Shown here in pieces: positions 2,435 to 63,151 of a DNA stretch of 64,000 bases; positions within the stretch are counted from its first letter, which is position 1; each line of letters opens with the position of its first letter. The notes under the pieces are model-generated. The model had not been told where the DNA came from. It did not search any database and worked only from the letters and a program-made list of their open reading frames with translations. The DNA comes from Candidatus Fermentibacterota bacterium (GTDB lineage Bacteria > Fermentibacterota > Fermentibacteria > Fermentibacterales > JCC-6): assembly GCA_030609965.1 (NCBI GenBank), contig JAUWSQ010000001.1:105787-169786 (forward strand), read 5' to 3'. The position numbers were made by a program, and so were the translations under genes.

Positions 2435-4297
2435 TTATTGAAGGCATCTGTTCAATCTGTCCGAATCGATTATCAAAGCCAGATCCTGTATATGGAGCTT
2501 CATAGCCTCGATCTCAGAAGCATTACCTCCTCCGCTATCGCATACGCTAAAAAGAATTTTCCAGGCTATAATAAGCATGCTCTCGGCAAGAGCTCTTTCG
2601 GATTGGGGCAGTGCCTCCGCAATAGTGACAAGCCTCCCGGCTCGGGTAACAGCCATTTCCGCTGTTTCCTGTGTCGGCGTGTATACAAACTCGCAGACGG
2701 CTTCTCCTATCATGACCAGATCCTGAACATCATCGGGAGGAAATGCTGCCGTATTCAATGCAAGAATACTTCGTTCGGGAAGGGTTATTGGAGCAACCCT
2801 GAGGGCATTCATGTATGAATCTGCCGCATCTTCGTTTCTGCCGGATGCCGTCTCGGCCAGAGCCTGAAGCATCCATCCCTTCCAGTACGCAGGATAGATG
2901 CTGTTGAACTTCCCGGCAGTATTCCCGGCAGCGAGTACCATTCCATCATTAAAATACGCCTGGGTCAGGAAAAGCCAGGTTCTCTCTTCGAACGGTATCC
3001 ATGAAGATGCCTTCTCCAGTGTCACCGCAGCGTTAGCGGCTGATCCGCTGCCGGACAAACCCAGCACTCTCCCGCGCTCGAGGAGGCTGTAGCCCCTGAT
3101 AATTATCATACTCCAGAAGAAAGCGGCAGCCAGCAGAACAAGCATTACAGGTAATGGAATATGGATCGTTCTGTCTAGAGATGGTCTGCCAAGGATAACA
3201 CCGATACAAAGGGCCAGCGGCAGAGCTCCAAGAGGAGTTGCCAGCGGAAGATCAGCTGCCATGAAAGGTAATATGCAGAATAGAAGAGCACCCTCGATAC
3301 CAGTGAAGTGTTTTTTTCGAACGATCAGCCATCCCGCAAGACAGACAAGAAGAAAGCCCCCAATTCCCCATTCCACCACGGGTGTAAGTATTTCTGAGTG
3401 AAGGTGGTCTATCCTTTTCTCAGGATCTCCCGCAAGAATCTGCACCCTGGTACCGGCATCCTGGATAAGTGTAAGTCGTGACTGACCGGTACCGGTTCCC
3501 ATCGGCAGATTCCGCATTAACTGGCCGGTTCCCGCCTGCCAGGTGCGGCATCTGATTTCGAGAGAGGGAGCTACACTTCGAGTAATATCAGGAACTGCCG
3601 TTACAAAGATCTGCCCAGCTAGAATAATCCCTATGAAAATTCCGGGATGAAGCTTCTTCCGCAGGTTCAAGGCGAACCAGAGCAGAGCCAGAATGACCGC
3701 TATCCATGAAAGGGCAAAATCAGTCATAACGAGCGCAGTGCCTGTAAGGATCGCTGCGGGAATCCTTATCCAGGCTTTTCTCGTTCCCCCGCCTGTTACT
3801 GTTATAATGAATCCTACAGCCAGAAGGGCACCCGGCCTGTTAGCATTTCCCCAGATAATATCACCAGGGACTAATATCTCGATGATCGCGGTTATTACCG
3901 ATGCTGTCATCAGTGAAATCCAGATCGATCGAGAACCAATAGCTCGTGCGATACCGGCCGCTCCGGCAATCATCAGGCCGAAGGAGATCCACTTCACGGC
4001 CGGGAGTATTCCCTGGATGGGGATGGGAGCTGTAAGTATTCCCATCAGAGGCAGAAAAGAAAGGAGGACTGCTCCTGTCACTGCCCAGACGGGAATGTGT
4101 TTTCTGCCTGCGAACAGGACAAGCAGAGCACAGATCGGATAGACTGCAAGACGGGATGTAAGAGTCGAGTCGAACAGTCCGGGAAAAACCGACAGCATCG
4201 CAAGTAAAAGAGCTGCGGTTATAGTTGTAACTCCATTTATTACAGCCGGGTTAGTGTTAGCGGAGTCAATTGAACAGTGTACCTTCTCTTGGGGCAT
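2435..4297 (-). CDS. O-antigen ligase (Wzy_C)-like membrane protein with C-terminal helical/TPR-like region
   Basis: About 12 hydrophobic segments; loop motif R..TWQAG...PMGTGTGQ...DHLHSEILTPVVEWGIGG typical of Wzy_C. Confidence 0.7.
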   Translation of the reverse strand: MPQEKVHCSIDSANTNPAVINGVTTITAALLLAMLSVFPGLFDSTLTSRLAVYPICALLVLFAGRKHIPVWAVTGAVLLSFLPLMGILTAPIPIQGILPAVKWISFGLMIAGAAGIARAIGSRSIWISLMTASVITAIIEILVPGDIIWGNANRPGALLAVGFIITVTGGGTRKAWIRIPAAILTGTALVMTDFALSWIAVILALLWFALNLRKKLHPGIFIGIILAGQIFVTAVPDITRSVAPSLEIRCRTWQAGTGQLMRNLPMGTGTGQSRLTLIQDAGTRVQILAGDPEKRIDHLHSEILTPVVEWGIGGFLLVCLAGWLIVRKKHFTGIEGALLFCILPFMAADLPLATPLGALPLALCIGVILGRPSLDRTIHIPLPVMLVLLAAAFFWSMIIIRGYSLLERGRVLGLSGSGSAANAAVTLEKASSWIPFEERTWLFLTQAYFNDGMVLAAGNTAGKFNSIYPAYWKGWMLQALAETASGRNEDAADSYMNALRVAPITLPERSILALNTAAFPPDDVQDLVMIGEAVCEFVYTPTQETAEMAVTRAGRLVTIAEALPQSERALAESMLIIAWKILFSVCDSGGGNASEIEAMKLHIQDLALIIDSDRLNRCLQ

Positions 4298-4373
4298 AGA
4301 GTAAAATCCGATCTTTAATACCTTTAACTTTAAGTTGTAATTTCAAGCACAATATTTATGCTCCCGTGTACCG

Positions 4374-5156
4374 TCAATCCTCAGTATCGATAATGCCGGA
4401 GTAGATCTCGAACCCGCAGAGTTCCAGATTTTTCAAGAGTTCTTCCGGATCACCGCCCCACAGCCCCAGCTTCCGAGATATGTGCTCTGTCCAGGAGTAA
4501 CTGTCAAAATCGAATTTTTCTTCAGTACCTTCCCGAAGTGGTATCATGTAGTTAGCTTCCCTGTAGTAGTTCTGTCTGAGGTACCCTGAATCCATTTCCT
4601 CAGCGGCTTCGGATACGGCATCATCACTGAAACAAGTGTATTTGCTCTCAAACAGGTGAAATTCCATGGGATACCTGGGTCTTACAGGGGGATCTTCCGC
4701 AGGGTATCCCATTGTTAACATCACAAGAGGGAAAATCCTGTCAGGCAGTTCGTACAGTTCCCTGATCTTCTTTACCATGAATGGAGCAGCTCCGATATAG
4801 CAGCTTCCAAGCCCCAGGCTTTCCGCGGCTATCACCATGTTCTCCGCCATATAGGCGGCATCCTGGATCCCGAACAAAAGTGTATAAATGTCAGAAGCCT
4901 TTCTCTTCCAGCCCCGCCTCTCCATGATCTTTTCCATTCTGTACACATCGACACATATGGTGAAAAGAAGTGGAGCTCTGAATACATTATGCTCAATCTC
5001 CCTGGACAGGAGAACACTGCCCATCTGCATGGCGAACGGAGCCTGCTGGCCCGCACGGACAATGGTTTCGATTACTTCATCCGAAGGCTGCTCCTCACGG
5101 TATTTCCTGATCGATCTCCTATTCATCATGGCATCAATAACAGGATTACTTATCAT
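4374..5156 (-). CDS. Nitroreductase family protein (NfsA/FRP-like)
   Basis: NRRSIRKY, AAYMAENMVIAAESLGLGSCYIG and LTMGYPAE motifs; ATG 5156 preferred over GTG 5168. Confidence 0.9.
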   Translation of the reverse strand: MISNPVIDAMMNRRSIRKYREEQPSDEVIETIVRAGQQAPFAMQMGSVLLSREIEHNVFRAPLLFTICVDVYRMEKIMERRGWKRKASDIYTLLFGIQDAAYMAENMVIAAESLGLGSCYIGAAPFMVKKIRELYELPDRIFPLVMLTMGYPAEDPPVRPRYPMEFHLFESKYTCFSDDAVSEAAEEMDSGYLRQNYYREANYMIPLREGTEEKFDFDSYSWTEHISRKLGLWGGDPEELLKNLELCGFEIYSGIIDTED

Positions 5157-5358
5157 CGATTCCCTCACCTCCCCGTGTTACTTTGCATTTCAATACTACA
5201 CACACATTGAAACAGTGTCATGGTTTCCATGCTTTGTTCAGGTGAATACATAATTGATCCATGAACAGAGGGGACTTGCCCCGGATACCCTGCTGGTTTA
5301 CATTGCATGAAATTAAATGATCAGAGATTCGCAGCAGGTTAAAGCAGAGGGGTCAGGC

Positions 5359-6451: not shown

Positions 6452-6862
6452 TTAGACTGTAACCTGCCACTCCTCGTCGCCGATCTGGCTAAGACCTATG
6501 CCGTTGCTCAGGAGAGAATCTCTGAACCATTCAAGGGATTTTTCGAACCCGCTTAGCAGCACAACTGAGCCATCTATGGCTTTCAGTTCAAGCAGCTTTT
6601 TGTTCTTGGCATATTTACCTCTGCTTGCCTTAAGTCCCTCCAGGGGAAAGCTTACAGGATTACCTTTAACCAGCAACATGATCAGAATGCCCAGCTGCAT
6701 ATGAAAAGGAGCCATCTTGCCAAGATCGAAGTAGACGAATCTCCGATCTGTCAGAATGCATCGCGAATAAACAGGGAATTTTATCTTTTTCCCCTGCAGT
6801 GTAGATCTTTTATTATCGACAAGTACGCTTTCTCCTGGATTCAGTTCGAACTTTTTCCCCAT
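6452..6862 (-). CDS. Hypothetical protein (possible PH-like fold)
   Basis: 136-aa ORF containing CILTDRRFVY; no firm family. Confidence 0.6.
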   Translation of the reverse strand: MGKKFELNPGESVLVDNKRSTLQGKKIKFPVYSRCILTDRRFVYFDLGKMAPFHMQLGILIMLLVKGNPVSFPLEGLKASRGKYAKNKKLLELKAIDGSVVLLSGFEKSLEWFRDSLLSNGIGLSQIGDEEWQVTV

Positions 6863-7077
6863 TTCATTCCCTTTTCTGTAAAACCTCTTCGCAGACTCAT
6901 TACCAGTTGCCGGCAGGACGATATATCTTACAGTATGATTCTGTCAATACCACGATAATCCGGATTCCCCTGCAGAACTGCAATCCGCAGCAGCTGTGGT
7001 GAAAAGCGAAACTACTCCCCTTTCGCGCGAAATTGATTATTGTACCTTTTCATGGTTCAGAAACAGGAGAGTATTAA

Positions 7078-8385
7078 GTGGAAACAACATCTGACATTGT
7101 TCCCGACCTTAAGAAGGAAAACGCTCAGCTGCAACATCAGCTTAACAGCCTTGAGCTTGTATTCCGGAACGCGGTTGATATTCTGGTGGTTGTCGATGCG
7201 GCTTCAGGAACAATACAAAGGATAAGCGATGCCGTTGAAGCTGTGCTTGGTTACAAACGCTCGAACCTGATCGGCAAAAAACTGACAGAGATCCTCCCTG
7301 ATGATAAAACATCCAATCTGAAACTGCAGGACGGCATCCCAGAGATTGTTGACGGTGTATTTCTTGATCAGAAAGTGAAATGTCATGACGGCTCCTTCAA
7401 ATCAATGGATATGACCATAAGCCTCGTGAACAGTAATGATCAAAGCGTCATCCTTCTGACATTAAGGGACACCTCCCAGAGAAAACGCCACCAGGGTGAC
7501 ATGATCAAGAAGAACAGCGCACTGGACAGTGCGCTCAGTGCCATGATAATAACCAACAGTTCCTGGAAGATAGACTATGCAAATGTAGAGGCTCTGAATT
7601 ACTGGAGGTACAGCAGAACGGATATGCTGAATCTGGACATCTCGGACCTTCTTCCATACATGGGTGACTTTGACAGCCTTATGGAGTGTATGGAAGAAAG
7701 AGGTCAATGGGATGACGAAATAGAATGTCAGCGCAGGGACAGCACAACTTTCATTGCACATGCCACTGCTATTAGAGTGGATACTGATGGCGAAGAACAA
7801 TGTTATATTTTTTCATTTCTCGATATCACCAAGCGCGTCCGTCTTGAGAAAAGGCTTACGGAACTGTCTCTGCGCGACAGCCTTACAGGTCTTTATAATA
7901 GACGGGGGTTCATGACGCTGGGCAAACAGTTGCTTGATTCTTCCCTTCGGAAACAACCGGAGATCGGTCTGCTTTACGTTGACCTCGATTACCTTAAACT
8001 GTTAAACGATAAGCTGGGTCACTCGGAGGGTGACAAGGCTCTTGTAATCACTGCAAGAGTATTGAAGAGCTGCTTCCGGGATTCGGACATCATAGCCAGG
8101 CTGGGCGGGGATGAATTCGTTGTACTCTTCCTTGATACTCCGGGCCTCACCGTAGAATCCATCAGGACTCGAATAGATAGACAGCTTAAAGAAACCGTTG
8201 ACACTAAGCCTACTCCCTTCAGGTTATCCCTCAGTATAGGATATTATTCTACCGTACTGTGTTATCAAACTCAAATCGGGATGCTTCTCAGCAGTGCCGA
8301 TTCTCTCATGTACGAAGACAAGGAAAAAAGAAGAAAATCTGTCACCGAGGCTGACATACTGCTAGGGAATGATCAGCAGACCTGA
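7078..8385 (+). CDS. PAS-PAS diguanylate cyclase
   Basis: Two PAS-like repeats; DSLTGLYNRRGF; RDSD I-site and GGDEF. Confidence 0.92.
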   Translation: METTSDIVPDLKKENAQLQHQLNSLELVFRNAVDILVVVDAASGTIQRISDAVEAVLGYKRSNLIGKKLTEILPDDKTSNLKLQDGIPEIVDGVFLDQKVKCHDGSFKSMDMTISLVNSNDQSVILLTLRDTSQRKRHQGDMIKKNSALDSALSAMIITNSSWKIDYANVEALNYWRYSRTDMLNLDISDLLPYMGDFDSLMECMEERGQWDDEIECQRRDSTTFIAHATAIRVDTDGEEQCYIFSFLDITKRVRLEKRLTELSLRDSLTGLYNRRGFMTLGKQLLDSSLRKQPEIGLLYVDLDYLKLLNDKLGHSEGDKALVITARVLKSCFRDSDIIARLGGDEFVVLFLDTPGLTVESIRTRIDRQLKETVDTKPTPFRLSLSIGYYSTVLCYQTQIGMLLSSADSLMYEDKEKRRKSVTEADILLGNDQQT

Positions 8386-8402
8386 CCCCCTTCACCTGGA
8401 AC

Positions 8403-8452
8403 TTGACATAGGCAGTTAATTGGAATACGATTCCGTATTCGAATATTTGAAT
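8403..8452 (+). promoter_or_regulatory. Sigma70 promoter with overlapping ArsR-type operator
   Basis: TTGACA (8403-08), N17, TACGAT (8426-31); inverted repeat GAATACG-N4-CGTATTC (8423-40); ATTC-N8-GAAT (8437-52). Confidence 0.75.
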
Positions 8453-8474
8453 ATCCTATCAAAGGAACAATGGA

Positions 8475-8846
8475 ATGGCATCTGATAACGAACCGGACCA
8501 GGAATATTTCTATAATAATGCTGACCTGCTCAGAGCTATGGCTCACCCGGTAAGGCTTATGATTATGGACGAGCTGCTGCGGAATCCCAGATGTGTTAGT
8601 GCCATCCATGAGATACTCGATGTCCGGCAGCCCAACATATCCCAGCACCTTACAATTCTGAAGAATTCCGGAATAGTTGCCTCGGACCGGGACGGCTCCT
8701 ACAGATGCTACTACCTTCGAAGACCCGGTCTTGTCAAAGCTGTTCTGGAAACACTGAAGAAGGACTGGCCGGAAGCGCAAATAGAAAATGTCAGAGGTAA
8801 ATTCAAACGGGCGCTGAAAAAGCGCCTGGACAAACTGGGAAAATAA
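8475..8846 (+). CDS. ArsR/SmtB family transcriptional repressor
   Basis: AMAHPVRLMI...QPNISQHLTILKNSGIV HTH. Confidence 0.9.
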   Translation: MASDNEPDQEYFYNNADLLRAMAHPVRLMIMDELLRNPRCVSAIHEILDVRQPNISQHLTILKNSGIVASDRDGSYRCYYLRRPGLVKAVLETLKKDWPEAQIENVRGKFKRALKKRLDKLGK

Positions 8847-8866
8847 CCCCGGAAGGAGACTCTTTT

Positions 8867-9220
8867 ATGGGTAAAGTAGCTTTAATCTGCAACGGTTCTG
8901 AAAAATCAAATATCTATCCTGCATTCGTTCTTGCTTCCTCGGCCGTTGCATCAGGTGACGATGTATTAATTTTCTTCACACCTGAAGCGGTTCCAGCCCT
9001 GAAACCAGGTATTCTGGAGGGCATGACAGGAAAAGGTATGCCTGATATGAAGGATCTTCTTGAGGGGTTTATGGCTCTCGGCGGACGCATGATGCTGTGC
9101 GAACTGGGGCTGGAAGCACATGATGTTACAGCTGAAGGCCTGAGGGACGATATCAATATAGGTGGAGCAACCACCTTCATGGCTGAAATTCAGGACGCGA
9201 AAACAACATTCTCATTCTAA
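8867..9220 (+). CDS. DsrE/DsrF-like sulfur carrier
   Basis: FVLASSAVASGDDVLIFFT...MMLCELGLE; DsrE fold with one Cys. Confidence 0.8.
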   Translation: MGKVALICNGSEKSNIYPAFVLASSAVASGDDVLIFFTPEAVPALKPGILEGMTGKGMPDMKDLLEGFMALGGRMMLCELGLEAHDVTAEGLRDDINIGGATTFMAEIQDAKTTFSF

Positions 9221-55477: not shown

Positions 55478-56030
55478 CTCGTCAACGCAGCGAGCAAGCC
55501 GCCGACATTACCTCTGATTGAAACTGGATCGCTCTGGCCACGATCCTGATTACGGGGATTGGAATCATAGAGTAGTTTTCAAGGTCAAAGCGACCTGGAG
55601 CAAACTGAATCTTCATTATAAACCATTCAGCAAATCCCCCAAAACAACGTGTTCTTTCAAACAACCTCCGATTCCTACCTGAAACTCACAATACAACCTG
55701 ATAAAGCTGTAGTCAACCAATGTTGCCATCAATTGCGTCGGGATGTCATCCTGTCAGGATGTGTAATCCGCTCAGGATTCACACACCAGTTCCATAGGTT
55801 CAGGAGGTGACCTGGGATCTTCCCAGAGATCAAGGTGTTTTTGACTTAGTCAAGCTCCCCATGCAACCGGCAATGCTGGTGTCAGGATACACCTGATGGT
55901 TGAAGGCTGCTCTATGAAAGAGATGCCTTTGCAAGCGGGGCGGCATCATTTTCTCACCGCACTTCGGGTACTTCAGGGCATGGTTGTCGAATGCAACATA
56001 GAAGGTTATCTTGACAAAAATAATCAACTA

Positions 56031-56117: not shown

Positions 56118-57329
56118 ATGAGCAAAACGCGCTCAGAACCAAAACTTGAGTCTGTATCCACGATTGAAAAAACTCCTCGTAAGCGTAAAAAGATATTCTC
56201 AGTAGTTTTTATGCCTACATTGGCTTGTAATTGCAGATGCTCCCATTGTTTTGAGGAATTAGCCGAGGGGAATGCGGAAGATCACAACTGGGAACTTCAC
56301 TTCACTGAGATGCGCAGGCTGGCTGAGACGCTTAAATGCAATACGCTGAAAGTGTACTGGCAAGGCGGCGAGGTCCTTTGCTTGCATCCGGATACCGTCC
56401 AGTGCGCACTTGATATTGGGGCTGCAGTTTTTAAAGATAGTGATATTACTCTTGAACATCATCTACAAACGAACTTGCTCCTCTATGAAACGTCCAGATG
56501 GAAGGAAGTAATCTCCAATTTTTTCCTCGGCAGTATAAGCTCCTCTATTGATCTGCCGAATCTCTTCCGCCTCACGCCAACCCTGGGTGTGGATGAATAC
56601 AACCGGGCGTGGCTCAAGAAAAAAGATATGGCTGAAAGAGACGGGTTCACCGTCAGTGTAGTCAGCTTACCGAACCATAAAACCCTGGAACTTGGCGCCG
56701 AGCGCTTCTACCGATTCTTCCGGGATGAAGCACTGTTGAAAAACGTGCAGGTCAACTTCCCATTCCCTGGAAATAGCGGTTTGGAACCGCTGGATCTCAA
56801 AAAGCTGGCCGGATTTATGACCGATTTGTACAAGATATGGGTCGCATCAGGCAGAGACCTTAATCTGAGCCCGTTTAGGGCAATGGAAGACAGGCTGTTA
56901 CGAGGTAGAGGCGCGCTTCCCTGCTGCTGGACGTACAGCTGCGCTTCCATCCTTCTGTCGATCGGCCCGAACGGTGGTGTAGGCCAGTGTGATTGCTGGG
57001 TAGCCACTTATAGTGATCATAACTTCGGAACGACCGATCAGCCCGTTGAGCAGCTCTTGGATTCGGATCAGCGGCAGCCGTTTTTGAACAGACCCCTCAA
57101 ACTGATGCGGGATACCAAGTGTGGTGAGTGCAAGTTCTGGGGAATTTGTTTTGGTGGTTGTCCGATTCGCGCGTTTGCATTCACAGGCAACCTGATGGAT
57201 GTCGATCACTATTGCCCAGTTTATTATGAAATGTTCTCAATCATTCTGGATCAAGCAGAGCATGAAAGCCAGTTAGAGTATGAATTCAGTGAGGAGGTAG
57301 AATTCAGTTCGTCGGAGAAAGGTGGGTAG
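56118..57329 (+). CDS. Radical SAM/SPASM peptide maturase (anSME-like)
   Basis: PTLACNCRCSHC, WQGGEV, LQTNLL; SPASM CCWTYSC..GQC..CGECKFWGICFGGCP..YC. ATG 56118 preferred over 55896. Confidence 0.9.
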   Translation: MSKTRSEPKLESVSTIEKTPRKRKKIFSVVFMPTLACNCRCSHCFEELAEGNAEDHNWELHFTEMRRLAETLKCNTLKVYWQGGEVLCLHPDTVQCALDIGAAVFKDSDITLEHHLQTNLLLYETSRWKEVISNFFLGSISSSIDLPNLFRLTPTLGVDEYNRAWLKKKDMAERDGFTVSVVSLPNHKTLELGAERFYRFFRDEALLKNVQVNFPFPGNSGLEPLDLKKLAGFMTDLYKIWVASGRDLNLSPFRAMEDRLLRGRGALPCCWTYSCASILLSIGPNGGVGQCDCWVATYSDHNFGTTDQPVEQLLDSDQRQPFLNRPLKLMRDTKCGECKFWGICFGGCPIRAFAFTGNLMDVDHYCPVYYEMFSIILDQAEHESQLEYEFSEEVEFSSSEKGG

Positions 57330-57361
57330 TTTCTCATCAAGTATGAAGGGAGGAGAATGGT

Positions 57362-57802
57362 ATGACTCTGGAAAAGCAACCAGATGGAAGAAAAGAGAAG
57401 AAGAAAACAAAGAAAGAAGACGACAGCATTGACAGACGCGAAGCGCTGAAGAGAATTGGCCGGTACTCGGCCATCGTGGCCGCCGCGCTTACAACCGGCA
57501 TTCTCAAGACAGGCTGCGGGAGCAATCCTACCGCCCCATGGTCGGATGCGTACAGCGACTGGAACAACACCTACAGCGACTGGAATGACGGTTACAGCGA
57601 CTGGAATGACGGTTATAGCGACTGGAATGACGGTTATAGCGACTGGAGCAACGCCTGGTCCGACTATAGCGACTGGAGCAACACCTGGTCCGACTATAGC
57701 GACTGGAGCAACACCTGGTCCGACTATAGCGACTGGAGCAACTGGTCTGACTCTTATAGTGATTGGAATAATTTCTGGGGAAATTGGATGCAGTCGTGGT
57801 AG
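57362..57802 (+). CDS. Putative precursor peptide/lipoprotein with Trp/Tyr-Ser-Asp repeat core
   Basis: RBS GGAGG; DRREALK + hydrophobic stretch + KTGC; residues 60-146 contain 17 W, 9 Y, 1 F. Confidence 0.85.
   Translation: MTLEKQPDGRKEKKKTKKEDDSIDRREALKRIGRYSAIVAAALTTGILKTGCGSNPTAPWSDAYSDWNNTYSDWNDGYSDWNDGYSDWNDGYSDWSNAWSDYSDWSNTWSDYSDWSNTWSDYSDWSNWSDSYSDWNNFWGNWMQSW
57551..57772 (+). repeat. Coding tandem repeats: 4 x 21 nt, then 3 x 30 nt plus shortened copies
   Basis: TAYAGCGACTGGAA(TGACGGT/CAACACC) x4 (57551-634); TATAGCGACTGGAGCAAC(G/A)CCTGGTCCGAC x3 (57635-724); a 27-nt copy and a diverged copy follow. Confidence 0.95.
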
Positions 57803-57844
57803 GTTGTTAGCACTGTAACTCAAGACGCATAGTTTGCACATCAA

Positions 57845-59818
57845 TTGATGGGTAATATGAAGATAAATCAGAGATGTGCATATCCAGAAATACAAAGCGC
57901 ATCTGTATTAATCGTTGCACCGTACGGATATTTCTCTCTCGCAACAGGCTTCTTTCTTGAAACGCTTAAGGCCTGCCTTAAAGAAGTAAAGAATGTAAGA
58001 TTCCTGACCCGAAGTTACCCCAGGATACATACCGAGGTTGATATCTCCTTCGTCAGGGACATGTTGCTCCTTAAACCAAATGTTATCGGTTTCTCCAATT
58101 TCTTCTGGAATCTCGAACAGAACATAAAGCTTGCCCTGCTGGCAAAATCCCTCCTTCCAGATACATTTGTTATTTTCGGTGGACCCCAGGTTGGGGATAC
58201 CAGCTACGCAGCCGATCTCCTGGAGAAGCATAATTGTATCGATGCAATTCTCCGTGGTGAAGCTGATTTTACGTTTCCAGAACTGGTTCGTCAGATCTTT
58301 GCAGATGAAAAGATTGGTGGACTTGCCGGTCTCGTGCTTAGGGACAGGAACGGTATAAGTGCCGAACAGGGCCAGTGTTACGTTCAGGATATTAACACAC
58401 TCCCCATCGTCTTCCATTCTGAAAGCGAATATGCGGCTAAATATCTTAATGTAAACAACATTATTCCCCTGCAAACCTTGCGCGGTTGCCGCCAAACATG
58501 CTCTTACTGCCTTTATTGCACCAGTACGCCGCGGGTATTCTCCCTTGAACGCGTCGAGAAAGAGGTTGAATTCCTATGCCAACACGGCGCGCGATATGTG
58601 CGTGTATGTGACAGTCATTTTGGAGGGTCGAAGAAACGCGCTATGGATCTTTTTAATGTTATCCGGTACCATAACACTGAAACGATGTTCAGTATTTATC
58701 CTGATCCCCGACATCTCGACCTGGATTACATTCGAGCAGCCGGCAGTGCAAATTGCAGGATTATTTCACTTGGTGTTGAAGCATTGGACCCGGCCGTTTC
58801 ATCGGAAGTTAACCGTGACTCAACCGGCACCGAATTTCTGGATACCCTCCATCTCCTGAACGAGTACGGGGCTGTTCCGCAATTGGATATGATGTTCGGG
58901 CTGCCGAAGCAATCCGATCGGAGTTTTCAGAAGGATCTGATACATCTCAAGCTTGAAGGGGCGCGCAATATATTATTTTCCCCTCTGATGGTTTTCCCTG
59001 GAACCGAGTTGGACTCCACCATGAACGATAAAGGTATATCGACTCTGAGAATCCCCCAGCAGTATGGATATGATAAAACGCTCGGCTTGGGCGAGTATAC
59101 CGCAATGATTGTTACAAGTATATGCTACCGGCTTCTATACATGTTTCCGCGCATGGATTATTATGCTCGATTCATTAGTAGCGACAAGACGAAGTACAAA
59201 GAGAGGCTTGAAATATGGTTCTCCGAAGCAACCGCATCGAACCGGGCCGATCTGCTCACGCTGTATGATGAACTAGGTACGTGTTCGGAATATATAAGAG
59301 CAAATGCGGACTCACTTTCAGATAGGGCCAATAAGTTTTTCAGCAGTTTTCTACATGATCGGTACGATAAGCCTGAGTTTCTTGACGGAATAGCACACAT
59401 GGATATTATGGAAATAGCAATGAAACAGCGCAGAGATGAGTTGGCAAGGGATATATATCCTCATCCAGGTTCAGTAAGCGTTATTTCAGAAGGTGATTTT
59501 GCGAAGCTGGCATGGGTGCTCAGTAAAGATGCCTGGCTTGAAATCCATGCTGTGCCGTATCAGTTCGCATCAATGGGACGAGGTCATCCTTCCGGGAGAC
59601 CTTCTGACAAAGTCTATTGTATTTACTTCTGTCCAACTTGCAAGGTCTTTTATATTGACAAAAATGAGTTCGAATTTCTTCAACGTTTTACACAAGCAAA
59701 GCCACTGTCCGACAGCGAGATTGACTATTCGTCTGAATACATGCAGAAGGTTGGCAGGTGGGGGCGCATAGGAATCCTTGTGATTGACTCACCATCTCAT
59801 CAACCTGGCCTGGTTTAA
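57845..59818 (+). CDS. B12-dependent (class B) radical SAM enzyme
   Basis: PNVIGFSNFFWN..VIFGGPQV..GEAD B12 domain; TLRGCRQTCSYC; SLGVE; MFGLP; long C-terminal extension. Confidence 0.88.
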   Translation: MMGNMKINQRCAYPEIQSASVLIVAPYGYFSLATGFFLETLKACLKEVKNVRFLTRSYPRIHTEVDISFVRDMLLLKPNVIGFSNFFWNLEQNIKLALLAKSLLPDTFVIFGGPQVGDTSYAADLLEKHNCIDAILRGEADFTFPELVRQIFADEKIGGLAGLVLRDRNGISAEQGQCYVQDINTLPIVFHSESEYAAKYLNVNNIIPLQTLRGCRQTCSYCLYCTSTPRVFSLERVEKEVEFLCQHGARYVRVCDSHFGGSKKRAMDLFNVIRYHNTETMFSIYPDPRHLDLDYIRAAGSANCRIISLGVEALDPAVSSEVNRDSTGTEFLDTLHLLNEYGAVPQLDMMFGLPKQSDRSFQKDLIHLKLEGARNILFSPLMVFPGTELDSTMNDKGISTLRIPQQYGYDKTLGLGEYTAMIVTSICYRLLYMFPRMDYYARFISSDKTKYKERLEIWFSEATASNRADLLTLYDELGTCSEYIRANADSLSDRANKFFSSFLHDRYDKPEFLDGIAHMDIMEIAMKQRRDELARDIYPHPGSVSVISEGDFAKLAWVLSKDAWLEIHAVPYQFASMGRGHPSGRPSDKVYCIYFCPTCKVFYIDKNEFEFLQRFTQAKPLSDSEIDYSSEYMQKVGRWGRIGILVIDSPSHQPGLV

Positions 59819-59971
59819 TGACAATGAATACGGTTTGCATATTAGCTTCCTGAATTCATTCGAGAATTACTGAGTATTTTGCACCTGGGCGAGCCGACTA
59901 CGGGTGCAAATTTCGAAGAGTATCTTGCGAGATACAGGAAAGCTCTTTCCGGAATCGTGTTCAAAACGTAA
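59818..59971 (+). pseudogene. Collapsed remnant of a paralog of the first rSAM domain of the downstream gene
   Basis: MTMNTVCILAS* versus MKVNSVHVLIS; LGEPTTGANFEEYLA versus MGEPTLDPDFEEYLA; exact 19-nt match 59944-62 = 60943-61. Confidence 0.7.
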
Positions 59972-59989
59972 GCGCAGCTTTTAAACCTC

Positions 59990-60018
59990 TTGCCCGGGTT
60001 TTAAAAGAAAAATTATAA
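59990..60018 (+). promoter_or_regulatory. Internal sigma70 promoter
   Basis: TTGCCC-N17-TATAAT. Confidence 0.65.
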
Positions 60019-60182
60019 TACTACGCGTGATTTGAAATATTTAGGGGAAGGTAAACGGTTTTCTCGGTGTTCTCAACGATACGGAACACCGGGAGGAGGT
60101 ACTGGCGGTATCATCCTAACACATTCGGCAAACCCAACCCGAAGGGGAGGGGCATGCCGATATCAATTATTGAAGTGAAATA

Positions 60183-62261
60183 ATGAAAGTAAACAGTGTA
60201 CATGTATTAATCTCTAAATCCTGCCCAAACAACTGTATATTCTGTACTGTTGCTGGCCGGAGGAGAAGACAGATTTTCCCGGAAAAGAAAGAGATCATCC
60301 GCTTCATGAGGGATTCTGCGGCGGCGGGGACCCGGAGTCTGGTTTTCTCCGGCATGGGGGAGCCCACTCTAGATCCTGATTTCGAAGAATACCTTGCATT
60401 AGCAGAGGAATTGGGATTTGACAGCATCAGCCTTTTTACGAATGGTTATGGCCTTAAGGCAGAAGACGTCCGCCGCTGGAAAGATTATGGCCTTTCATCA
60501 GTCTTAATTTCCATGCATGGAATGGAAGACGGCCACGATCGCAATGTTCAGCGAAAGGGGTCTTTCAGGGAGGCTGTTTCCGCTATACGGCTATATTCAG
60601 AGTATGATATCTTGGTTACCGTCAACACATGCCTGACCCGGCTTAACCTTCCCGAGATACCGAGGCTGTGCGAATTCCTTGCTGGCTTTCGGGTGATAAC
60701 ACACACGCTCACATTCCCTGAGTGGTCAGGTAACGTGCCACTCTACGAAGAAAATATTCTCGATTACCACGAAGTCAGTGAAGTAGCGGGTGATCTGATC
60801 CCTGAAGGGAATATGATAGCAATGTTCGAGGATATGCCATATTGCCTGGTTCGTAATAAAACTCGCGAGATGCAGAATCGGGGAATTGTCGGGCTGCTCG
60901 ATGGTACCGGAGAGCATGAATTTGACGGGAACGCAAGGAAGATCTTTCCGGAATCGTGTTCGGGTCGCGGGTGCGTATTCCAAACCGTTTGTTCAGGTTT
61001 TGAGAGGAACTACATCAAAGCCCGGGGTTGGCAGGATCTCAAGGAAAGGGTTGGTCGGTTTCTTGATCTTCTCAATGATCCTGAGCACGGGGATACAATA
61101 TTAGCAGAATTACCCGATCACCCTCGTACGCGCAGATCCCCGAAAGGAAGCCGACGCAGGTCCGACCGTGGACCTCATAACAGCCAGGTCGTGATCGTTA
61201 AACCAACCAGCCGGTGTAACGCAGGTTGCCGATATTGCTCAAGCTATAAAGAATCGCAACCACCCGATATGTCGCCTGACTTCCTCGACAAGATGTATGC
61301 GGAGCTGTTCGAATATGCAGCGCTCCAGGGCAAAAAATACATTACATTCTTGTGGCATGGGGGAGAACCATTACTCATGGGCAAATCCTTCTATGACCGC
61401 GCATGGGGTCTGACAACCACCGTTAAAGATCTGAGAATCACACATATCCTCCAGAGCAACATGCTGCTTCTGGATAATGATTGGGTGGAGCTGCTCAGCC
61501 GGTACAATGTACACATCAGCAGTTCTGTTGACCCGATTGGTCAAGACCGTATTCTCAAGGATGGTCGTCAGCAATATCCCGACTGGCTTGACAAGTTCAT
61601 CCTGGCTGCTTCCGGCGGCCTGCACTTAGGATTAGTGTTTACGGTCACCCCGAGCCATATTGATAGGTATGCTGACGTTTATCATTTCTTTAAGAACCTG
61701 CAAACCCTGTCAGCAAGACCCCTGGGCGTTCGCTTGAATCCGGTCTACCCGGCCGGGGCCGCTAAAGGGCTGGACCCTGGGGAGTTGATCGACCCAGCCG
61801 ATTACGGTGAATTTCTTTGCCGGCTATGGGATCTCTGGTGTAATGATGGGAAATCTTTCCCGCTCTCACCGTTTACAGATTGGAGTGAGGGGAAAGGAAC
61901 AACATGTGAATTCTCCGGACGATGCCAGGATAATTTCATAGAGGTTAGCGGCAATGGTGATATTCACCACTGCGGAAGGTTTACAGACGCAGGTTTGGTG
62001 CTGGGGAACATTACTAACGCCAAGCTTGTGGATATACTGAAACACCCTCAGATGAAAGAAATTCGTCGGCGTTCAGAGCTGCTGAAAGATGGATCGTGTA
62101 AAGGATGCCCTTTCTGGGAACTTTGCATGGGTGGCTGCCCTTGTCACGCTTATACTACATTCGGAGAAATAACGCGCGAAACCCCCTACTGCCCCGCCTA
62201 CAAAATGTTCTTTGCTTCGAGCGGCCTGGGCAGTGTTGAAGATAAGCTGGAGGTTAATTGA
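60183..62261 (+). CDS. Tandem radical SAM fusion: rSAM (HxsC-like) + rSAM/SPASM
   Basis: CPNNCIFC..SGMGEPT..CSGRGCVFQTVC; linker; KPTSRCNAGCRYC..WHGGEP..LQSN..CEFSGRC..HHC..CKGCPFWELCMGGCP..YC. Confidence 0.88.
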   Translation: MKVNSVHVLISKSCPNNCIFCTVAGRRRRQIFPEKKEIIRFMRDSAAAGTRSLVFSGMGEPTLDPDFEEYLALAEELGFDSISLFTNGYGLKAEDVRRWKDYGLSSVLISMHGMEDGHDRNVQRKGSFREAVSAIRLYSEYDILVTVNTCLTRLNLPEIPRLCEFLAGFRVITHTLTFPEWSGNVPLYEENILDYHEVSEVAGDLIPEGNMIAMFEDMPYCLVRNKTREMQNRGIVGLLDGTGEHEFDGNARKIFPESCSGRGCVFQTVCSGFERNYIKARGWQDLKERVGRFLDLLNDPEHGDTILAELPDHPRTRRSPKGSRRRSDRGPHNSQVVIVKPTSRCNAGCRYCSSYKESQPPDMSPDFLDKMYAELFEYAALQGKKYITFLWHGGEPLLMGKSFYDRAWGLTTTVKDLRITHILQSNMLLLDNDWVELLSRYNVHISSSVDPIGQDRILKDGRQQYPDWLDKFILAASGGLHLGLVFTVTPSHIDRYADVYHFFKNLQTLSARPLGVRLNPVYPAGAAKGLDPGELIDPADYGEFLCRLWDLWCNDGKSFPLSPFTDWSEGKGTTCEFSGRCQDNFIEVSGNGDIHHCGRFTDAGLVLGNITNAKLVDILKHPQMKEIRRRSELLKDGSCKGCPFWELCMGGCPCHAYTTFGEITRETPYCPAYKMFFASSGLGSVEDKLEVN

Positions 62262-63151
62262 TGCATGTTTTCCCAAAGAATACCCTGGTGAATACTCCGT
62301 GCGAAACTATGCTGGATGGCGAATGTTCTGTTTCCGTACGAATTAGCACACCTGATTCCGTTCCTCGTATACGTGAGTTTTACGGCAAGAGACTATTCAA
62401 CCTGGAAATTGAAGGTGAGTTGATAAAAGATATTGATCTTATACGTGCAATTGATGTAAACCGTGTCCGGATCATACTAGGAGACATCAACATACTTGAG
62501 GTTGAAGGCAGGTTGATAGAAGCATTGCAGAAAATGGGGGCTCAATCCGTGTTCGAGATTAACCCGGATAAGAAGCTTTTAAGAAACATCAACTTCCTCA
62601 CAGGCCTTGATATATTAGTGCATATTGATATGACAAAACCGGTCCAGGATGAAAACGCACTGCTGCAAGCGGTCGATTTCTATCTTCACAATCCTATGTT
62701 AAGAACACCGATTGAACCCATACATAACCTGCTTGTAACGATGAACCGAAGGCGGGGGCGTACATTGTGGAGTACGGAACTGGAAAACGTGAAGACTAAC
62801 TTTTACGTTAGTGATCAAGGGGAGGTTTCTCTTTCGAGTCGGTGGATAGAGAATGACATGAAATACGGTACGTTGGATGATTCCGTTAAGGATTTCATGA
62901 AATCAGAGCTATACAATAAATTGGCAACCTTGAAAGAAGAAATGTTCCGAAGTAAGAGTTCTTGTGTTTTCTGTGGAAATCTGGATGTATGCAAAGGCTT
63001 CCTGCGCGCAATTGACTCGGAATGGCCATGTGATATCTGGAAGAAGGTCTTCAATATTCTTCAAGGTGCGGTGCGGGAAGGAAAGGATCTCCTGAGGAAA
63101 ATTGATCAACAGAAGGAACTGGCAAAATCGCCGGATGAACAGGTTACATAG
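62258..63151 (+). CDS. Accessory protein with SPASM-like C-terminal Cys cluster and no CxxxCxxC
   Basis: 4-nt overlap with the upstream gene; CVFCGNLDVCKG..WPC. Confidence 0.75.
   Translation: MMHVFPKNTLVNTPCETMLDGECSVSVRISTPDSVPRIREFYGKRLFNLEIEGELIKDIDLIRAIDVNRVRIILGDINILEVEGRLIEALQKMGAQSVFEINPDKKLLRNINFLTGLDILVHIDMTKPVQDENALLQAVDFYLHNPMLRTPIEPIHNLLVTMNRRRGRTLWSTELENVKTNFYVSDQGEVSLSSRWIENDMKYGTLDDSVKDFMKSELYNKLATLKEEMFRSKSSCVFCGNLDVCKGFLRAIDSEWPCDIWKKVFNILQGAVREGKDLLRKIDQQKELAKSPDEQVT

Follow-up and report, generated by a model that had tools for sequence, protein, structure and literature searches.

A five-gene radical SAM cassette with a putative aromatic-x-Asp/Asn substrate protein in a Candidatus Fermentibacterota bacterium

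The precursor gene, its triplet tail and its relatives

A 64,000-nucleotide stretch of a Candidatus Fermentibacterota genome (assembly GCA_030609965.1, contig JAUWSQ010000001.1, positions 105,787 to 169,786 of the forward strand; the whole stretch is called the window here, and all positions refer to it) carries near its end a cassette of five genes, which encode a small precursor protein and four enzymes of the radical S-adenosylmethionine (rSAM) type, one of them apparently inactive. The precursor ends in an 87-residue tail filled with triplets in which an aromatic residue is followed two positions later by Asp or Asn, and these triplets are candidate sites for three-residue cyclophanes. The same cassette is found in at least 12 independent loci from metagenomes and metagenome-assembled genomes (MAGs), in at least three gene orders, and because of this conserved synteny with the same four enzyme genes the precursor is very probably the substrate of the rSAM enzymes.

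The precursor gene (57362-57802, + strand) encodes 146 amino acids (MTLEKQPDGRKEKKKTKKEDDSIDRREALKRIGRYSAIVAAALTTGILKTGCGSNPTAPWSDAYSDW...FWGNWMQSW, with the stop codon ending at 57802) and was assigned from its open reading frame (ORF) translation, its homologues and its synteny with the four enzyme genes. It is a real gene, present in a single copy in the genome, and a ribosome-binding site, GGAGG, can be read 8 nt 5' of its ATG (57349-57353, +). The protein has no match in Pfam or NCBIfam, and none to TIGR04260. A minus-strand ORF at 57251-57895 was considered as a gene as well, and was rejected as a repeat artefact without homologues.

The tail (residues 60-146; 57539-57799, +), defined by motif count, contains 27 aromatic residues (17 Trp, 9 Tyr and 1 Phe), 24 of which have Asp or Asn at position +2. 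This tally and its breakdown into 9 YSD, 5 WSD, 4 WSN, 3 WND, 2 WNN and 1 WGN had been given in the original prediction and are reproduced exactly by the translation, and the motif start positions confirm that the triplets do not overlap and lie 3 to 4 residues apart (start-to-start spacing of 3 residues in 13 cases and of 4 in 10). The three aromatics without Asp or Asn at +2 are Phe138, Trp142 (in WMQ) and the C-terminal Trp146. Composition-preserving shuffling of the 87 tail residues (20,000 rounds) gave a mean of 8.9 motifs with a standard deviation of 2.0 and a maximum of 17, versus the 24 observed. The motifs of the window tail are mutually dependent, as the tail harbours two young tandem DNA arrays. 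Tandem Repeats Finder delineates a 21-nt unit (YSDWNDG) repeated 4.6 times with 92% matches (57551-57647, +) and a 30-nt unit (YSDWSNTWSD) repeated 3.6 times with 98% matches (57635-57742, +), and the 30-nt expansion is missing in the closest relative, locus L078. The count of 24 is partly due to recent tandem duplication and is an upper bound on the number of rings; it is indeed the highest in the family, as its presentation as exceptional would have it, but it stands at the top of a continuum (5 to 24 triplets over 19 tails in the family, at most 17 in the sister family described below). Since the motifs are not independent, the case for the +2 register must rest on the relatives.

Relatives of the precursor were collected by a word-indexed search, which found four, and by a DNA pattern for a C-terminal WGNWM(Q/E)SW followed by a stop codon, which found six metagenome loci; in addition, a profile of the last 45 residues matched 12 of 1.84 billion representative proteins, in every case at the extreme C-terminus and with the terminal octapeptide. 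This octapeptide, W-G-N-W-M-Q-S-W-COOH in the window (57776-57799, +) and W-G-N-W-M-(Q/E)-S-W in the family, is invariant in an alignment of 10 tails (columns W38, G39, N40, W41, M42, S44 and W45). In 12 homologous tails Asp or Asn occupies the +2 position of the aromatics in 83% of cases (90% when Gln and Glu are counted), versus 51% at -1 and at most 36% at the other offsets, and the register is judged real because this preference is kept across the family tails. Between the window and L078, whose precursors are 70% identical, position 1 is identical in all 21 aligned triplets and position 3 is Asp or Asn in all 21, while position 2 is identical in 9 of 21 (WND changes to WEN, and YSD to YTD or YGD) and the spacers in 10 of 15.

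The two main aromatics differ in their partners. In the 19 tails, the residue two positions after Tyr is Asp for 94 of the 111 Tyr and Asn for none, while the 169 Trp have Asn there in 100 cases and Asp in 42 (142 together); at position 2 after Trp, Ser is freely swapped for Gly, Asn, Thr, Glu or Asp. At the sequence level, the pattern of Asp only after Tyr and of Asn or Asp after Trp points to two specificities. Up to 12 copies of Tyr-Ser-Asp occur in one protein of the family, interleaved with Trp triplets. A variant precursor of 103 amino acids (P0002, in loci L003-L005) has 16 triplets, mostly Tyr-Ser-Asp, and ends in SYSDDD without the WGNWMQSW octapeptide; it is followed by an rSAM gene starting MFVIVKPTLACNARCTYC, where all five contigs break.

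The N-terminal region of the precursor (57362-57517, +) was recognised as an export signal by family comparison. It comprises a Lys-rich n-region, the twin-arginine sequence D-R-R-E-A-L-K-R and, after it, 14 uncharged residues, with the h-region YSAIVAAALTTGIL leading to K-T-G-Cys52. The twin arginines are present in 19 of 20 full-length family members, and so is a Cys after the h-region, with Gly, Ala or Ser at -1 in 18. The lipobox at the end of a lipoprotein signal follows the pattern [LVI][ASTVI][GAS]-Cys, which is canonical in several members (LVAC, LTAC, LSGC), and L072 has Arg at -1. Judged by this comparison, lipidation at Cys52 of the window protein is likely. The genome has lspA and two copies of tatC, one of them 3.2 kb beyond the last cassette gene (-), and tatA (+) lies 4.1 kb beyond it; in L078, tatA directly follows the cassette and is 79% identical to that of the window genome. 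The twin-arginine translocation (Tat) pathway carries folded cargo and is therefore a sensible route for a cross-linked tail, and cytoplasmic Fe-S enzymes must act before export.

Nothing lies between signal and tail in the window, in L078, in L072 and in P0125. Other members have a module of an extracytoplasmic type at this place, either a beta-sandwich of the PPC kind or, in P0132, a set of three Big_2-like repeats and, in P0133, a domain like CarboxypepD_reg, and the tail-bearing carriers with folded domains measure about 94-352 amino acids. L076 and P0132 have 5-7 triplets only, behind large Ig-like domains. The Tat/lipobox-like N-terminus and the folded domains before the tail in relatives indicate that the product is probably a modified exported lipoprotein and not a free peptide, so that the picture of a leader and a core peptide from which the analysis started is incomplete.

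The cassette enzymes and their sister family

All four enzyme genes lie on the same strand as the precursor gene, and together they encode four catalytic domains with an intact CX3CX2C motif. The full five-gene set is present in L002, L071, L072, L073, L074, L078 and L088, and partial sets are found on the shorter contigs of L006, L075, L076 and L085-L087; no protease or transporter gene was found in any cassette examined. The stand-alone rSAM/SPASM maturase is encoded upstream of the precursor in an ORF that begins at 55896. Its homologues start at the equivalent of Met75, and the true start is probably 56118, which gives a protein of 403 amino acids (56118-57329, +) that was assigned on family scores, structure match and homologue starts. 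It has the CX3CX2C motif (CNCRCSHC) and a full SPASM motif (CGECKFWGICFGGC). Its best NCBIfam models are DynA (89 bits), TIGR04083, DarW and anSME, and its closest solved structure is the anSME 4K36. The enzyme is 79% identical between the window and L078 and is intact wherever a locus contains it in full, L073 with its tail of Trp triplets only among them. About 55 clusters share at least 41% identity with it; their sources are MAGs of Deltaproteobacteria, Thermodesulfovibrionia and Hydrogenedentes, and their only name is "radical SAM protein".

The second putative maturase is part of a fused double rSAM protein of 692 amino acids (60183-62261, +), assigned on family scores and relatives. Its N-terminal domain has CPNNCIFC and a twitch-like Cys cluster and resembles HxsC4, NirJ and AhbD, while its C-terminal domain has CNAGCRYC and a SPASM motif (CKGCPFWELCMGGC). 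The C-terminal half scores best with DynA (181 bits), anSME (159), YhhB (116), FxsB (93) and GrrM/OscB (88), all below the cut-offs. Relatives of the double protein are rare (a search of 5.8 billion clusters gave 18 at E <= 1e-30), and almost all of them share the fusion; for two distant relatives of the second SPASM domain that stand alone (P0151 and P0148), no recognisable precursor lies in the gene context. In the window, a gap of 365 nt separates the double rSAM gene from the upstream B12-binding rSAM gene, and the two genes abut without a gap in L078. The gap (59818-60183, +) holds a decayed duplicate of the N-terminal rSAM domain of the double protein, detected by tblastn, which matches residues 253-322 with 43% identity over 70 amino acids and in-frame stops (E 3e-12), and also a GEPT..FEEYLA fragment.

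The B12-binding rSAM enzyme (57845-59818, +; 657 amino acids, CRQTCSYC) was assigned on Pfam and NCBIfam scores and structure match. It scores 53 bits with the Pfam Radical_SAM model, above the cut-off, and 26.5 bits with the B12-binding model, below the gathering score of 32.1; its NCBIfam scores are 83 bits for KedN5 (cut-off 700) and 72 bits for TIGR03975, a C-methyltransferase of ribosomally synthesised and post-translationally modified peptides. TokK and CysS are its closest solved structures, and by sequence it is a probable C-methyltransferase or other tailoring enzyme. Of the 9 loci whose contigs reach this part of the cassette, 8 carry the enzyme. The ninth, L086 (3574-4260), has a cassette without it anywhere in 12.6 kb, and its precursor ends in ...NYSVWMNTF. 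This single case, in which the enzyme and the canonical octapeptide are both absent, hints that the B12 enzyme may act on the C-terminus.

The last gene of the cassette encodes an accessory protein of 297 amino acids (62258-63151, +), defined by an alignment and a structure model. The protein has no family match and only a sub-threshold SPASM match. In an alignment of 20 sequences, C235, C238, C244 and C257 are invariant (CX2CX5C...C) and CX3CX2C is lacking; the AlphaFold2 (AF2) model is confident (predicted local distance difference test score, pLDDT, 90; predicted template modelling score, pTM, 0.85), and its best folds in the PDB are SuiB, PqqE, CteB and BtrN at a template modelling (TM) score of ~0.5. 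On account of these four Cys residues and the modelled fold, the protein is taken to be a catalytically dead rSAM/SPASM paralogue. A role as a TorD-like signal-peptide chaperone, which would explain the conserved GK(W/Y)S of the leader, was also considered, and it is weakened by Competibacteraceae loci that keep the leader motif without the accessory gene.

The two SPASM enzymes seem to divide the triplets between them. The tails of L072 and L073 have Trp triplets only and no Tyr-x-Asp, and in both loci (L072 on the reverse strand, oriented 3266-5347; L073 at 6860-8900) the second SPASM domain is retained in frame with its CX3CX2C and GGE lost, which turns it into another pseudo-enzyme domain, while the first rSAM domain of the fused protein is intact. 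The second SPASM domain is intact in all seven loci with Tyr-Ser-Asp triplets (Fisher p = 0.028). Furthermore, the start of the rSAM gene that follows the Tyr-rich P0002 precursor resembles the second SPASM domain. Together with the position of the stand-alone enzyme as sister to W-x-N enzymes (see below), these comparisons suggest that the stand-alone enzyme may serve Trp-x-Asn/Asp and the second SPASM domain Tyr-Ser-Asp. The idea that both SPASM enzymes are lost or kept together was rejected, as only the second decays in the Trp-only loci.

A scan with the stand-alone enzyme, one genome per species, gave 64 loci. A tail of the YSD type occurs in one, L007 (49% identity), and the other ~60 (33-37% identity) belong to Competibacteraceae, Blastocatellia, Desulfomonilales, Rokubacteria and others. 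These form a sister family with precursors made of W/Y/F/H-x-N-(R/G/K/S)-G-G units (median 10 and maximum 17 motifs, modal spacing 7). Their signal, RR(E/D)FLxSLGKWSxxVIGG, is followed by an AxA cleavage site, and RRxFLxxxGK(W/Y)S is common to it and the window family; in 20 of the sister-family loci a four-Cys pseudo-enzyme is encoded just upstream of the SPASM enzyme. A maximum-likelihood tree puts the window-type enzymes into one clade (100/99) within the Gly-type W-x-N family (98/99) and the second SPASM domain into a separate clade (99/97), with GrrM, an anSME-like protein and L082 as a long-branch outgroup. The tree therefore supports the relationship between window-type and Gly-type enzymes only, not a link to GrrM, and a placement of the family beside GrrM, which was tried, is unsupported by it. 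The rSAM/SPASM protein of L017, from a record titled Synechococcaceae cyanobacterium SM1_2_3, looks by eye nearly identical to that of Candidatus Contendobacter odensis (L022), and the contig may be mis-binned.

Genes of the rSAM type are unusually frequent on this contig and around the cassette. Downstream of the cassette and past the end of the window (C51:168000-180000, L077) lie, besides tatC and tatA, genes for B12-rSAM-like proteins of 704 and 559 amino acids and for an rSAM/SPASM protein of 350 amino acids, all on the minus strand.

Proposed maturation and competing explanations

We propose that at least one SPASM enzyme of the cassette forms cross-links from the aromatic ring to C-beta of the +2 residue on these triplets, and by analogy with known enzymes we give this reading a probability of about 55%; that all 24 sites are modified is unlikely. 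The scheme that we infer, which covers the chemistry, the division of labour, the ring number (up to 24), export and lipidation, would begin in the cytoplasm, where the stand-alone rSAM/SPASM enzyme (56118-57329) would abstract a hydrogen from C-beta of the Asn or Asp at position 3 of Trp-x-Asn/Asp. The same carbon would then be joined to the indole of position 1, so that each three-residue cyclophane lowers the mass by 2 Da, and the catalytically dead partner (62258-63151) probably assists the stand-alone enzyme. The second SPASM domain of the double rSAM protein (60183-62261) would carry out the same reaction on Tyr-Ser-Asp, while the N-terminal rSAM domain of that protein and the B12-rSAM enzyme (57845-59818), most likely a C-methyltransferase, would perform further tailoring, possibly of the invariant C-terminal W-G-N-W-M-Q-S-W. 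Periodic methylation had been raised in the original prediction as an alternative to rings; because the B12-rSAM gene is a core gene of the cassette, methylation may be retained as an additional step. The cross-linked protein would finally be exported by Tat, cleaved and lipidated at Cys52, and the product would be an envelope-anchored, highly acidic and rigid aromatic tail of 95 residues.

The earlier suggestion of a poly-cyclophane stands in part: the substrate gene, the adjoining maturases that resemble anSME, DynA and three-residue cyclophane-forming enzymes, the published motif types, the conservation of positions 1 and 3 and the place of the stand-alone enzyme within a family found next to W-x-N repeat precursors all speak for it, but the ring chemistry is an extrapolation from them and 24 is only an upper bound. 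If the scheme holds, the cassette may possibly represent an undescribed class, and we put this forward tentatively: triceptide-type stapling on the tail of Tat-exported, lipid-anchored proteins, in which the signal doubles as recognition leader, two maturases are split by aromatic, and a dead partner and a Tat exporter take part.

Several observations weigh against rings. The reactions of rSAM/SPASM enzymes in the anSME-like subfamily include ether, C-N link and formylglycine formation and epimerisation as well. None of the cassette enzymes reaches the cut-off of a curated triceptide-type family: for GrrM/OscB (TIGR04261), 310 bits are required and 30.4 (stand-alone enzyme) and 88.1 (second SPASM domain) are observed, and against 450, 370, 445 and 425 bits for XyeB (TIGR04496), FxsB (TIGR04269), YhhB (NF041707) and AmcB (NF041718), the second SPASM domain reaches at best 116 bits with YhhB, 97 with AmcB and 93 with FxsB, and the stand-alone enzyme at most 29 bits on that set; XyeB is absent among the listed NCBIfam matches of the cassette enzymes. 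The sister Gly-type enzymes score ~92 bits on TIGR04261 and are no closer to genuine GrrM (~25% identity) than to the anSME-like protein, and that family is uncharacterised, so that the argument from W-x-N is one of motif analogy. By these scores, the enzymes do not belong to XyeB, GrrM/OscB or FxsB, the families named in the original prediction. Moreover, no characterised precedent for back-to-back triplets (spacing 3) was found in the literature, and the only parallel is a predicted one, FPN x8 in L081. The correlation behind the division of labour rests on L072 and L073, which are related and possibly reflect a single evolutionary event; the lipobox of the window and of L078 (L-K-T-G/A-C) has an atypical Lys at -3; and the AF2 model of the precursor, from a five-sequence alignment, is uninformative on any intrinsic fold (pLDDT 40, pTM 0.17).

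A further such point concerns Ser, which is the middle residue of 85 among the 94 Tyr-x-Asp triplets and may itself be the target. It belongs to an explanation that keeps the cassette and the substrate and changes the radical chemistry: ether (C-O-C) or C-N links of the kind that DarE/DynA form, epimerisation at C-alpha, beta-hydroxylation or dehydrogenation, Ser oxidised to formylglycine or aminomalonate, or predominantly B12-dependent C-methylation of the polytheonamide kind. We regard this as rather unlikely, although the best NCBIfam models of both SPASM domains are DynA and anSME and not a triceptide family, over-oxidation of peptidyl Ser to aminomalonate by rSAM enzymes has been reported to accompany the formation of cyclophanes (PMC12186529), a B12-rSAM enzyme related to TokK and CysS is a core gene, and the N-terminal rSAM domain of the double protein has no assigned role. 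The cut-offs of the models named are far from reached (DynA, NF041298, cut-off 450 bits, 89 and 181 observed for the stand-alone and second SPASM domains; DarE, NF038005, 650 bits, 67 and 86 observed; anSME, TIGR03942, 349 bits, 67 and 159 observed), the window core contains no omega-x-omega motif, and the cassette contains no sulfatase gene or C/S-x-P-x-R motif. What speaks against other chemistry is that the strongest constraint falls on the aromatic and on +2, while Ser is replaced by Gly, Asn, Thr, Glu and Asp after Trp and by Thr or Gly after Tyr in L078, that the Tyr-to-Asp and Trp-to-Asn/Asp couplings match the published YxD and WxN/D cyclophane motifs, and that the sister family has W-x-N with a fully variable middle residue.

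Modification could also be confined to the C-terminal octapeptide W-G-N-W-M-Q/E-S-W and the few conserved triplets before it, with the array as an unmodified and rapidly expanding acidic and aromatic spacer. The octapeptide is the sole strictly invariant part of the tail, triplet number ranges from 5 to 24 with the window excess stemming from arrays 92-98% identical in DNA, L076 and P0132 make do with 5-7 triplets, and L086 lacks both the B12-rSAM enzyme and the canonical octapeptide. We nevertheless hold this to be improbable, given that no expanded unit departs from the pattern of aromatic and +2 residues, while close relatives differ at position 2 and in the spacers, that the sister family, which has no such octapeptide, retains 10-17 W-x-N units next to one SPASM enzyme, that the P0002-type tails, equally without it, keep 16 triplets beside an rSAM gene, and that the loss of Tyr-x-Asp coincides with the death of one catalytic domain. 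Very improbable, finally, is an unmodified tail whose repeats serve a secreted lipoprotein in structure, adhesion or metal binding while the neighbouring rSAM genes act elsewhere. With 17 Asp among its 87 residues the tail is strongly acidic, and it occurs on exported proteins with beta-sandwich domains, and in a region rich in rSAM genes some adjacency could be due to chance; the recurrence of the same four enzyme genes around the tail gene in so many independent loci and in different orders argues against chance, as does the co-occurrence of an equally rare tail profile (12 representatives in 1.84 billion) and fused enzyme (18 relatives), and AF2 gives no confident fold of the tail.

If the cyclophane reading is true, the window would encode the densest natural cyclophane array known, with up to 24 rings in 87 residues and no spacer, and it would move cyclophane chemistry from secreted small molecules to the structural modification of envelope proteins. 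The cassette is also a natural experiment on specificity, with two SPASM maturases, cleanly separated Tyr-to-Asp and Trp-to-Asn/Asp motifs and a domain that decays with motif loss. In addition, it offers a pseudo-enzyme partner and a testable link between rSAM maturation and Tat export, and enzymes that staple back-to-back three-residue motifs in proteins would be useful tools for the rigidification of peptides and proteins.

Comparison with known systems

The background on cyclophane chemistry is taken from PMC11002830, PMC11499958, PMC12912966 and PMC9062424. OscB links C7 of Trp to C-beta of Asn or Asp, YxdB links C3 of Tyr to C-beta of Asp (review PMC11002830), and Aro-Xaa-Asn motifs are common in a survey of the same enzyme subfamily (PMC9062424). 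In all characterised triceptides the leader is removed proteolytically just before the first cyclophane to release a small free peptide (PMC12912966), and those compared have one to three motifs, three in the case of MicA. The window shares with them the omega1-X2-X3 motifs of the precursor and two adjoining intact anSME-related rSAM/SPASM domains, and proteolytic release of a small peptide is absent from the picture of the window family. No published description of Tat-signal triceptide-like precursors was found in a literature search that was limited, so that this absence is no proof.

Among curated systems, GrrA/OscA and GrrM/OscB (TIGR04260/TIGR04261) resemble the window in having repeated aromatic-x-Asn/Asp triplets in the precursor C-terminus next to an anSME-like rSAM/SPASM enzyme. 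As positive control served L081, a genuine TIGR04261 member with 381 bits. Its GrrM/OscB enzyme lies (1174-2658) beside a 93-residue precursor with a Sec-like signal and eight back-to-back Phe-Pro/Asn/Arg-Asn triplets (FPNFPNFNNFPNFPNFPNFPNFRNF), which is a predicted precedent for zero-spacer cyclophane motifs at the sequence level. The window enzymes are about 25% identical to this GrrM or less, the window precursor has Asp/Ser-rich instead of Gly-rich spacers and a Tat signal with a lipobox-like Cys, its relatives often have a folded middle domain, and a pseudo-enzyme partner and three further rSAM domains belong to the cassette. YxdB is similar in that Tyr-x-Asp is the commonest triplet of the window (9 copies), a likeness of motif; the window family differs by its interleaving of many Tyr-Ser-Asp copies with Trp triplets.

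The closest relatives of the window system are the Tat-signal W-x-N-R-G-G cassettes of the sister family, which share the signal and the four-Cys partner (20 loci), have an enzyme 33-37% identical to the stand-alone maturase, and belong to no curated family. They differ by an AxA signal-peptidase-I site, Gly-rich spacers (mode 7 versus 3-4), Asn as the only residue at +2 and the lack of Tyr-Ser-Asp, of the invariant octapeptide, of the B12-rSAM enzyme and of the double rSAM protein.

DynA is the best curated model for both window SPASM domains, and the family end shows a mere resemblance to darobactin, in that N-W-M-Q/E-S-W is in register with N-W-S-K-S-F of the core W-N-W-S-K-S-F (N2, W3, acceptor 5, S6 and aromatic end). 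Darobactin binds BamA as a rigid beta-strand (PMC9055067). By analogy, the C-terminal N-W-M-Q/E-S-W, if made rigid, might imitate a beta-strand and so attach the lipoprotein to a barrel protein of the outer membrane, for instance BamA, which we consider quite improbable. The window differs from DarE/DynA by having no omega-x-omega ether motif and by its substrate, which is an exported protein of about 95-350 residues and not a heptapeptide. The TvgA/TvgB poly-cyclopropylglycine system provides another example of an anSME-subfamily rSAM enzyme that acts repeatedly on a tandem-repeat core (PMC9062424), and it differs by its TVGG motif, its chemistry and its dedicated transporters. The His-Xaa-Ser system (HxsA with HxsB/HxsC) likewise combines omega-x-small triplet repeats with two rSAM proteins, and the window double rSAM protein resembles a fusion of an HxsC-like domain with a SPASM domain of the HxsB type (HxsC4 86 bits versus a cut-off of 500, HxsB 77 versus 370), whereas the window system has neither His repeats nor HxsD. 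To conclude, judged from its sequences, the window system would work like a triceptide pathway but lies outside every curated maturase family.

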